Positions 12,977-14,863 of a stretch of DNA of 64,000 nt are shown here, piece by piece (position 1 is the stretch's first letter; each line of letters begins with the position of its first letter). A model generated the notes under the pieces. That model was not told where the DNA came from and searched no databases. It saw only the letters and a program-made list of their open reading frames with translations. The stretch is taken from assembly GCF_003018255.1 (NCBI RefSeq), contig NZ_CP027440.1; one strand, 5' to 3'. A program made the position numbers and the translations under genes. The DNA comes from Escherichia coli. GTDB lineage: Bacteria > Pseudomonadota > Gammaproteobacteria > Enterobacterales > Enterobacteriaceae.

Positions 12977-13873
12977 TTACGGTACGTCGTAACCTAGTGC
13001 CGCTTTACGGATACGGAACCATTGTTGACGGGTCATTTTCAGTGTTTCTGCTTCGACTGCTGCCCGTACGCGCTCAATTTTACCTGAGCCGATAATTGGC
13101 AGCGGCTGCGACGGTAAACGTAATACCCAGGCGTAAACCACCTGTTCAATCGAGCCCGCGTTTAACTCCTCTGCCACCACAGCCAGTTCATCACGCAGCG
13201 GCTGGAAATAATCATCATTAAACAGACGACCACCACCAAGGCAGGACCACGCCATCGGACGAACACGCAGTTGTTGCAGTTGGTCGAGCGTGCCATCCAG
13301 CAGTAACGGCTGATGTACCGGGGATATTTCCACCTGATTAGTGGCAAGGGTAAACGGCAGGCGTGATTGCAAAAGCGCAAATTGCACAGGCGTAAAGTTC
13401 GATACGCCAAAATGACGCACTTTGCCGCTCTGATGCAGATGTTTAAACGCGTCCGCCACTTCATCGGCATCCATTAACGGGTCTGGTCGGTGGATTAACA
13501 GCAGATCCAGATGATCGGTCGCGAGATTAATTAGCGACTGTTCGGCGCTCTTAATGATGTGATCGCGGTCAGTGATGTAATGACCAATGACGTTTTCTTC
13601 ACGCGCGGTCGTCGCGATACCGCATTTACTGACGATTTCCATCCGTTCACGCAGGTGAGGTGCCAGTTTCAACGCCTCGCCAAACGCCGCTTCGCACTGA
13701 TAGCCACCATAAATATCAGCATGGTCCACGGTGGTCACGCCGAAATCCAGATGCTCTTCAATAAAACTGACCAGCTGGCGGGCGGACATATTCCAGTCCA
13801 TCAATCGCCAGTAGCCCATCACAAAACGGGAAAACTCCGGGCCTTGCGGCGCAATAGTAATACGCTGAACCAT
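12977..13873 (-). CDS. ydhF: aldo-keto reductase family oxidoreductase
   Basis: 298 aa ORF; recognised as YdhF. Confidence 0.88.
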   Translation of the reverse strand: MVQRITIAPQGPEFSRFVMGYWRLMDWNMSARQLVSFIEEHLDFGVTTVDHADIYGGYQCEAAFGEALKLAPHLRERMEIVSKCGIATTAREENVIGHYITDRDHIIKSAEQSLINLATDHLDLLLIHRPDPLMDADEVADAFKHLHQSGKVRHFGVSNFTPVQFALLQSRLPFTLATNQVEISPVHQPLLLDGTLDQLQQLRVRPMAWSCLGGGRLFNDDYFQPLRDELAVVAEELNAGSIEQVVYAWVLRLPSQPLPIIGSGKIERVRAAVEAETLKMTRQQWFRIRKAALGYDVP

Positions 13874-13921
13874 AATCGCTTCCTCTTATCAGATATGAGA
13901 GGAGTATACGCAAGATTAGGC

Positions 13922-14161
13922 TCAAAAGAGTGATGGTTGCTCCGGTTCGTCTGATGACGCTGGCTTATTTGCGCGTAATTTGCGCATTAATCGCTGCCGA
14001 CAAAGGCGCAGCACCTCTTGTTTTTCGCCATCGCTCATTTTATTCCAGTTAAAACGCTCATCCCGACTACGAAAACAGCCGCGACAAAACCCGCGTTCGT
14101 CAGACTGGCAAATTCCCCGGCACGGGCTCTGGACGGGAAAGAACTCTAATTGCTCCGCCAC
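13922..14161 (-). CDS. ydhL: DUF1289 Cys-rich small protein
   Basis: ORF track 136 aa; the form I recall is 79 aa starting at GTG (VAEQLEFFPVQSPCRGICQSDERGFCRGCF...); the longer frame would overlap the nemR start on the other strand. Confidence 0.75.
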   Translation of the reverse strand: MAEQLEFFPVQSPCRGICQSDERGFCRGCFRSRDERFNWNKMSDGEKQEVLRLCRQRLMRKLRANKPASSDEPEQPSLF

Positions 14162-14233
14162 TTCGCCCTCCTCAAATAAGATTATTACCATTATTGAAGC
14201 TGTTAATGCCCAAAGTAGCAACTTTGCTTGCAC

Positions 14234-14249
14234 TAGACCGACTGGTCTA
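14234..14249. promoter_or_regulatory. NemR operator-like palindrome
   Basis: TAGACC-GACT-GGTCTA (6 bp inverted arms, 4 bp spacer) about 15 bp upstream of the nemR start; matches the TetR-family NemR box type. Confidence 0.6.
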
Positions 14250-14263
14250 CTACACTCCAACGC

Positions 14264-14863
14264 ATGAACAAACACACCGAACATGATACTCGCGAACATC
14301 TCCTGGCGACGGGCGAGCAACTTTGCCTGCAACGTGGATTCACCGGGATGGGGCTAAGCGAATTACTAAAAACCGCTGAAGTGCCGAAAGGGTCCTTCTA
14401 TCACTACTTTCGCTCTAAAGAAGCGTTTGGCGTTGCCATGCTTGAGCGCCATTACGCCACATATCACCAACGACTGACTGAGTTGCTGCAATCCGGCGAA
14501 GGTAACTACCGCGACCGCATACTGGCTTATTACCAGCAAACACTGAACCAGTTTTGCCAACATGGAACCATCAGTGGTTGCCTGACAGTAAAACTCTCTG
14601 CCGAAGTGTGCGATCTGTCAGAAGATATGCGTAGCGCGATGGATAAAGGCGCTCGCGGCGTGATCGCCCTGCTCTCGCAGGCGCTGGAAAATGGCCGTGA
14701 TAGCCATTGTTTAACCTTTTGTGGCGAACCGCTGCAACAGGCACAAGTGCTTTACGCACTATGGCTGGGTGCGAATCTGCAGGCCAAAATTTCGCGCAGT
14801 TTCGAGCCACTGGAAAACGCGCTGGCACATGTAAAAACCATTATTGCGACGCCTGCCGTTTAG
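14264..14863 (+). CDS. nemR: TetR-family electrophile-sensing repressor
   Basis: 199 aa ORF MNKHTEHDTREHLLATGEQLCLQRGF...; recognised as NemR/YdhM. Confidence 0.92.
   Translation: MNKHTEHDTREHLLATGEQLCLQRGFTGMGLSELLKTAEVPKGSFYHYFRSKEAFGVAMLERHYATYHQRLTELLQSGEGNYRDRILAYYQQTLNQFCQHGTISGCLTVKLSAEVCDLSEDMRSAMDKGARGVIALLSQALENGRDSHCLTFCGEPLQQAQVLYALWLGANLQAKISRSFEPLENALAHVKTIIATPAV

Follow-up and report, generated by a model that had tools for sequence, protein, structure and literature searches.

The NemR operator and the open frame upstream of ydhL in the ydhL-nemR intergenic region of Escherichia coli

NemR, a TetR-family repressor of Escherichia coli, acts as an autorepressor on an inverted repeat in its own promoter, the NemR box of nemRA-gloA (Umezawa et al. 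2008; Gray et al. 2013; Lee et al. 2013), and point mutations there are described as derepressing the operon. A 2026 paper also describes binding of NemR to an inverted-repeat operator within its own promoter. Here we analyzed the control region between nemR and the divergent gene ydhL in a stretch of 64,000 nucleotides from the E. coli contig NZ_CP027440.1 (hereafter the window), which contains the same locus as the described NemR box, with the same sequence and no difference. The arrangement is similar to that of TetR/tetO in Tn10 and Tn1721 and of the AltR operator in Pantoea ananatis, where a palindrome between a divergent pair of genes overlaps the -35 and -10 elements of the repressor gene; the tetR mRNA of Tn1721 is leaderless, like that of nemR. 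The tet operators control both divergent genes, whereas the palindrome studied here overlaps the promoter of nemR alone and stands at no conserved distance from ydhL.

The locus is that of E. coli sodC-ydhF-ydhL / nemR-nemA-gloA, with the RefSeq gene order ydhF, ydhL, nemR and then nemA and gloA. Positions 13800-14400 of the window were matched in 5425 of 5426 complete E. coli genomes, with 100% identity to strain 2012C-4221 and 99.3% to K-12 MG1655 (601 nt compared), and the window is a natural E. coli allele of the known NemR box locus. The spacer between ydhL (13922-14161, minus strand; a 79-aa DUF1289 protein read from a GTG start; RefSeq, Pfam PF06945) and nemR (14264-14863, plus strand; a TetR-family repressor of 199 aa; RefSeq, Pfam TetR_N E = 6.3e-10, TetR_C_13 E = 4.4e-10) is 102 bp long. 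We gathered 80 orthologous Enterobacterales loci to compare the ydhL region and aligned the intergenic region from 20 genera (alignment A1). Both promoters were located through this alignment and not through a consensus scan, which found no promoter-like site in 13850-14400. It is very likely that the NemR operator lies in the nemR promoter, that ydhL has a separate promoter, and that the extension of the ydhL frame across the spacer is not expressed. The spacer would hold two back-to-back sigma-70 promoters, with the NemR operator in only one of them, that of nemR. These promoters are placed at base resolution, and phylogenetic footprinting and published data on transcription start sites (TSSs) agree. 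As for the elements themselves, the control region contains nothing new: the palindrome is the known NemR operator and the gene a known DUF1289 gene.

The palindrome TAGACC-GACT-GGTCTA, which the earlier note had placed between ydhL and nemR, was found as an exact match at 14234-14249, between the ydhL start (14161) and the nemR ATG (14264). We annotate it as the NemR operator TAGACCGACTGGTCTA (16 bp, perfect TAGACC-N4-GGTCTA, no strand assigned) from the exact match, its conservation and published mutations. It is present exactly or with at most two mismatches in most of the 80 loci that have an adjacent nemR, there always about 14-15 nt before the nemR ATG, and its half-sites are invariant in alignment A1. 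Taken alone it is statistically unremarkable, the window containing 27 perfect 6-4-6 inverted repeats compared with 15.3 +/- 3.4 in shuffles. We count it as real because it is conserved, is placed in a promoter and is hit by published mutations. The box bound by RutR, whose consensus we take to be TTGACCAnnTGGTCAA, has half-sites (GACC...GGTC) nearly identical to those of the NemR box, and the two differ at the second and fifteenth positions (A/T). If this consensus is right, the likeness of the half-sites would explain the binding of RutR upstream of nemRA without regulatory effect that is reported in a review. A point mutation of the site that NemR binds is also described (review) as leading to glyoxal resistance. 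In honey-evolved, methylglyoxal-selected E. coli, a G>A change occurred in four independently evolved isolates, at -84 from ydhL and -19 from nemR (supplementary mutation table); this is window position 14245, the second G of GGTCTA. The proposal that the palindrome is an operator therefore holds, since it sits in the spacer of the nemR promoter, is conserved across genera and is hit by a published adaptive G>A, and it was already known.

The nemR promoter consists of a -35 hexamer TTGCAC (14228-14233, plus strand), of which TTGCA (14228-14232) is invariant in A1, and 17 bp further on a -10 hexamer TACACT (14251-14256, plus strand) with invariant TAnAnT positions in A1. The 17-bp spacer is essentially the 16-bp palindrome TAGACCGACTGGTCTA. 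Between the -10 and the mapped TSS there are 7 nt, and this TSS coincides with the A of the nemR ATG (14264, plus strand; Tables S1 and S4 of Kim et al. 2012, PMC3415461). In that study the 5' untranslated region (5'UTR) of nemR has length 0 both in E. coli and in the Klebsiella pneumoniae orthologue, and both are listed in Table S4 of leaderless mRNAs. The nemR mRNA is thus leaderless, as was already known from published TSS mapping. The gap between the -10 and the ATG is 7 nt here and fixed at 6-8 nt across the 20 genera of A1, and no Shine-Dalgarno sequence was found before the ATG in the window or in the alignment. The nemR mRNA is absent from the list of five leaderless mRNAs of Romero 2014, and the Cappable-seq supplement has no entries for the ydhL-nemR locus.

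A leaderless nemR mRNA is consistent with a promoter occluded by its repressor. A dimer of NemR on the palindrome would block RNA polymerase sterically. According to the literature, NemR is released when electrophiles or hypochlorous acid (HOCl) modify its cysteines, and transcription would then begin at the A of the ATG to give a leaderless nemR-nemA(-gloA) mRNA.

On the opposite strand, the conserved positions of A1 led us to predict a ydhL promoter with a TSS at 14186 before we found the published one. The -35 hexamer TTGCTA (14216-14221, minus strand; plus-strand GCAA at 14218-14221 invariant in A1) lies within the promoter sequence of Kim 2012 and is separated by 17 bp from a -10-like hexamer TTCAAT (14193-14198, minus strand; plus-strand ATTGAAG at 14193-14199 invariant in A1) that ends 7 nt upstream of the TSS. 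For ydhL, Kim et al. 2012 (Table S1, PMC3415461) list a 25-nt 5'UTR and a TSS at 1723969 (U00096.2), which is exactly window position 14186 (minus strand), an invariant A in A1. The Shine-Dalgarno sequence AGGAGG (14167-14172, minus strand) precedes the GTG by 5 nt. In each of the 80 loci the position aligned with this GTG is taken by a start codon with a GGAG-type Shine-Dalgarno. The GTG start presumed in the earlier note is supported by the AGGAGG at 5 nt, the TSS 25 nt upstream and the conservation of the start, and the annotated 79-aa product is confirmed. An mRNA from 14186 would have a 25-nt leader with AGGAGG, from which the 79-aa YdhL would be made at the GTG, probably together with ydhF. 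The predicted fold of the ydhL mRNA is unremarkable (z = +0.5).

Two other features were seen in this promoter region. A second perfect 6-4-6 palindrome, CAAAGT-AGCA-ACTTTG (14211-14226), stands at 8 bp from the NemR box, where it overlaps the -35 of ydhL; Escherichia has it, and the other genera in A1 do not. In E. albertii (L004:571-816) and E. whittamii (L006:2763-3012), an insertion of about 124 bp separates the -10 and TSS from the Shine-Dalgarno sequence in the ydhL 5'UTR. This insertion shuts the upstream frame in both species and would make for a longer ydhL leader. It resembles the enterobacterial repetitive intergenic consensus/intergenic repeat unit (ERIC/IRU) repeat (core ...CCCAGGAGCTTACTAAAGTAAGTGACTGGGG...).

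The gene ydhF (12977-13873, minus strand; RefSeq, Pfam aldo/keto reductase) follows ydhL directly on the same strand at a distance of 48-60 nt in about 70 of the 80 loci, even where nemR is absent. Table S1 of Kim 2012 has no separate ydhF TSS between the sodC and ydhL entries. From this adjacency and the missing ydhF TSS we conclude that the conserved unit is ydhL-ydhF and not ydhL-nemR, and the two genes probably form a co-transcribed operon. A functional tie of ydhL to the nemRA operon, beside which the earlier note had placed it, is weak: the conserved partner of ydhL is ydhF, and genera differ in whether nemR adjoins ydhL and at what distance.

These comparisons also bear on whether the palindrome is a bidirectional NemR operator, with ydhL(-ydhF) belonging to the NemR electrophile regulon, which we consider unlikely. 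The operator has its center only about 55 bp upstream of the TSS of ydhL, with 6 bp between the two -35 hexamers, but it and the ydhL core promoter do not overlap, and the interval from the ydhL promoter module to the operator, made up of unrelated sequence, ranges from 0 to about 70 bp among genera. The two genes are divergent neighbors in many Enterobacterales; against this, eptA lies between them in Lelliottia, they are about 0.75-1.9 kb apart in Enterobacter, Buttiauxella and Cedecea loci, and in Erwinia, Winslowiella and Photorhabdus the pair ydhL-ydhF has no nemR in its vicinity. In favor of a role in the regulon, overexpression of ydhL scored as resistant to H2O2 and HOCl in a screen of the ASKA library, and the aldo/keto reductase YdhF is a plausible detoxifier of electrophiles. 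One primary study on methylglyoxal induction of nemRA makes no mention of ydhL. We infer that NemR does not control ydhL, and that its operator acts in the nemR promoter.

The intervening gene of Lelliottia nimipressuralis (L014:1224-2855) encodes an EptA-type phosphoethanolamine transferase (NCBIfam equivalog, 898 bits against a cutoff of 660) and has weaker matches to MCR families.

The ydhL frame is indeed open for 57 codons upstream of the GTG and antisense over the operator and the nemR start, as had been noted, giving a frame of 136 aa with a TTG start (13922-14332, minus strand). It is free of stops for 64 codons, up to an in-frame TAG at 14356. The 57-codon stretch (14162-14332, minus strand) spans the palindrome and nemR codons 1-23, and it is composed of 34 intergenic codons, stop-free by chance, and 23 codons that are codon-aligned antisense to nemR (14264-14332). 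We annotate it as a non-coding shadow frame, since it is not conserved, has no Shine-Dalgarno and lies mostly upstream of the TSS. The probability that 57-64 codons stay free of stops by chance is 0.08-0.105, so that the open frame, like the palindrome, is statistically unremarkable, and it has none of the conservation, positional or mutational backing of the palindrome.

As in other shadow open reading frames (ORFs), the distal 23 codons of the extension are in the exact antisense register of the nemR codons. A stop in this register requires TTA, CTA or TCA in nemR, and the register is open since the first 23 nemR codons include none of them. The run differs from the usual shadow ORF in being joined to a real gene, ydhL, by the 34 intergenic codons, which gives it the appearance of an N-terminal extension and not of an ORF standing on its own.

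Several lines of evidence speak against a meaning, as an extended gene, of the overlap that the earlier note had described. With the TSS at 14186, 25 nt before the GTG, only the last 8 of the 57 codons are on the transcript. We found no Shine-Dalgarno at the nine in-frame ATG, GTG or TTG codons upstream; the annotated GTG alone has one. The length of the upstream open frame varies from 0 to 65 codons across the 80 loci: Salmonella has 3 open codons, E. albertii and E. whittamii have 7 each, the near-E. coli genome L005 has 16, and Citrobacter has 3-28. YdhL is exactly 79 aa long in all of the 81 orthologues compared, and its N-terminus is shared by homologues: distant DUF1289 proteins start no more than about 3 residues from it, and the DUF1289 domain nearly always begins 1-4 residues from the N-terminus in 150 distant representatives. 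The 57 open codons are thus a chance shadow frame and not an expressed sequence.

Some observations weigh against this reading of the region. The ydhL TSS is supported by two reads from one study, and its -10, TTCAAT, departs from the canonical form in having no A at -11, where one is usual. The upstream frame was open in all five E. coli strains checked besides the window, where the region differs at only 2-5 bases, which accounts for the frame being open throughout. A public cluster of a 125-aa E. coli "DUF1289 domain-containing protein" exists (P0002, 120 member sequences), from which it follows that the ATG at 14299 has been taken as the start of the extended frame in some annotation pipelines. 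Finally, a sigma-54 site inside nemR, if ever active, could give a transcript that covers the whole extension.

This site is IA14 CTGGTTCAGTGTTTGCT (14535-14551, minus strand), detected by chromatin immunoprecipitation sequencing (ChIP-seq) in Bonocora 2015, antisense in nemR and directed toward ydhL. It lies 363 bp upstream of ydhL and is weak, with a low score in the position-specific scoring matrix (PSSM) and low occupancy; under the conditions of that study, the majority of sites like it showed no transcriptional activity. No source other than IA14 is conceivable for a transcript that would cover the extension. The -12 element TTGC is found only in the sequence of the window (E. coli), with CTGC in the sister species and TTCC in most genera.

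An extended YdhL isoform of up to 136 aa would have to come from such a longer transcript, started at the sigma-54 site in nemR or produced by antisense read-through, and would be translated antisense across the operator and the nemR start. Its existence is highly improbable. Open over 64 codons both in the window and in the five strains, the frame is no longer open in the nearest sister species and in almost every other genus, and each of the few E. coli polymorphisms that fall within the intergenic part is non-synonymous when read in the extension frame, altering the predicted amino acid. The ChIP-seq peak has a motif on the right strand, but its -12 element is not conserved and most sites of this kind were inactive. 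Although some gene callers output the 125-aa product, none of the upstream starts is preceded by a Shine-Dalgarno, and the conserved N-terminal M-x-E-Q-L-E-F-F stands right at the annotated start. The apparent extension is rather an annotation trap, already sprung in the pipelines that output the 125-aa product.

We also considered a sigma-54 promoter for ydhL and rejected it, as the GG-N10-GC elements are not conserved at the site, the -12 not even within Escherichia. The TTGC of this -12 depends on a CAA Gln codon of nemR.

The open frame could also be read as a small antisense gene of its own or as an antisense RNA that regulates nemR: it overlaps both the nemR start and the operator, and antisense transcription is common in E. 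coli. We give this almost no credence. The TSS table has no minus-strand TSS between the ydhL and nemR entries, no Rfam match was found at E <= 1, the promoter scan found no promoter-like site, and the frame is not conserved.

Any novelty may lie in the ydhL gene product rather than in the control region. The earlier note had described YdhL as a Cys-rich DUF1289 protein, and the peptide CRGICQSDERGFCRGCF is present, the Pfam match to DUF1289 (PF06945) is clear (E = 7.7e-19; 67.7 bits with a gathering cutoff of 27) and the four cysteines are near-invariant. For comparison we used the 81 YdhL orthologues and distant DUF1289 sets of 50, 140 and 150 sequences. Across 50 diverse homologues, C14, C18, C26 and C29 (C-x3-C-x7-C-x2-C) are at least 90% conserved, as are P13, G24, G28, R31, R33, E35 and W39. 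An AlphaFold2 model of YdhL built from a 50-sequence alignment had a predicted local distance difference test score (pLDDT) above 90 at residues 11-60, with less confident termini, and suggests a Cys knuckle followed by a long helix. Because the four cysteines are near-invariant, binding of a metal or Fe-S cluster is plausible and a fair reading of the sequence; some sources print metal or Fe-S binding as the name of YdhL.

DUF1289 is a widespread, Cys-rich and uncharacterized family without a solved structure, and we found no functional work on it in the literature searched. The gene neighborhoods of three distant DUF1289 genes showed no consistent partner. Besides the resistance to H2O2 and HOCl upon overexpression in the ASKA library screen, ydhL was called "essential" in a TraDIS study (sequencing of transposon insertion sites). 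In the natural isolate E. coli 2017.15.01CC (L086:304-1645), ydhL is split by an ISApl1 insertion; the gene is therefore dispensable, contrary to the TraDIS call.

The termini of YdhL are its most conserved parts outside the Cys core. The protein begins with M-A-E-QLEFF (QLEFF at residues 4-8) and ends with QPSLF-COOH (residues 75-79). M-x-E-QLEFF-P and QP[ST]LF-COOH are at least 90% invariant in the 81 orthologues, and residues 63-73 are variable. Related motifs were found at similar places in distant members of the family. Of 140 distant DUF1289 proteins, 119 have Q-x-[ED]-[LF]-F immediately ahead of the first Cys, and Qxx[LIMVF][FLWY] is present in the variable tail of 75. The strict motif was found in 55 of the 140 tails compared with 1.8 +/- 1.3 (maximum 6) in 500 tail shuffles, an enrichment of about 30-fold. 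The commonest tail forms are QFDLF, QLDMF, QIDLF, QASLF, QLSLF, QLDLF, QLGLF and QLNLF.

The published consensus of bacterial beta-clamp-binding motifs is QL(S/D)LF. Judged by sequence, both termini of YdhL and the tails of the distant DUF1289 proteins resemble the terminal QL[SD]LF of beta-clamp binders such as DNA polymerase II, UmuC and Hda. The N-terminal motif of YdhL differs from those of clamp binders in standing at a fixed distance from the Cys core, and it may be structural. We tentatively suggest, as a possibility that we do not favor, that YdhL and other DUF1289 proteins may be small four-Cys metal-binding proteins that dock onto the beta sliding clamp (DnaN). An AlphaFold2 model of a DnaN-linker-YdhL fusion from a shallow alignment had a mean pLDDT of 52, with DnaN itself unfolded. 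If the suggestion were true, a widespread uncharacterized family would link redox or metal chemistry to the hub of the replisome. The clamp-binding-like termini could offer a first functional handle on DUF1289, an unproven lead that seems worth following.

Long homologues were also present in the DUF1289 family. Many of them have low-complexity tails of 100-200 aa without a Pfam match, and some others (P0144 and P0220) have a C-terminal bacterial SH3 (SH3_3) domain.

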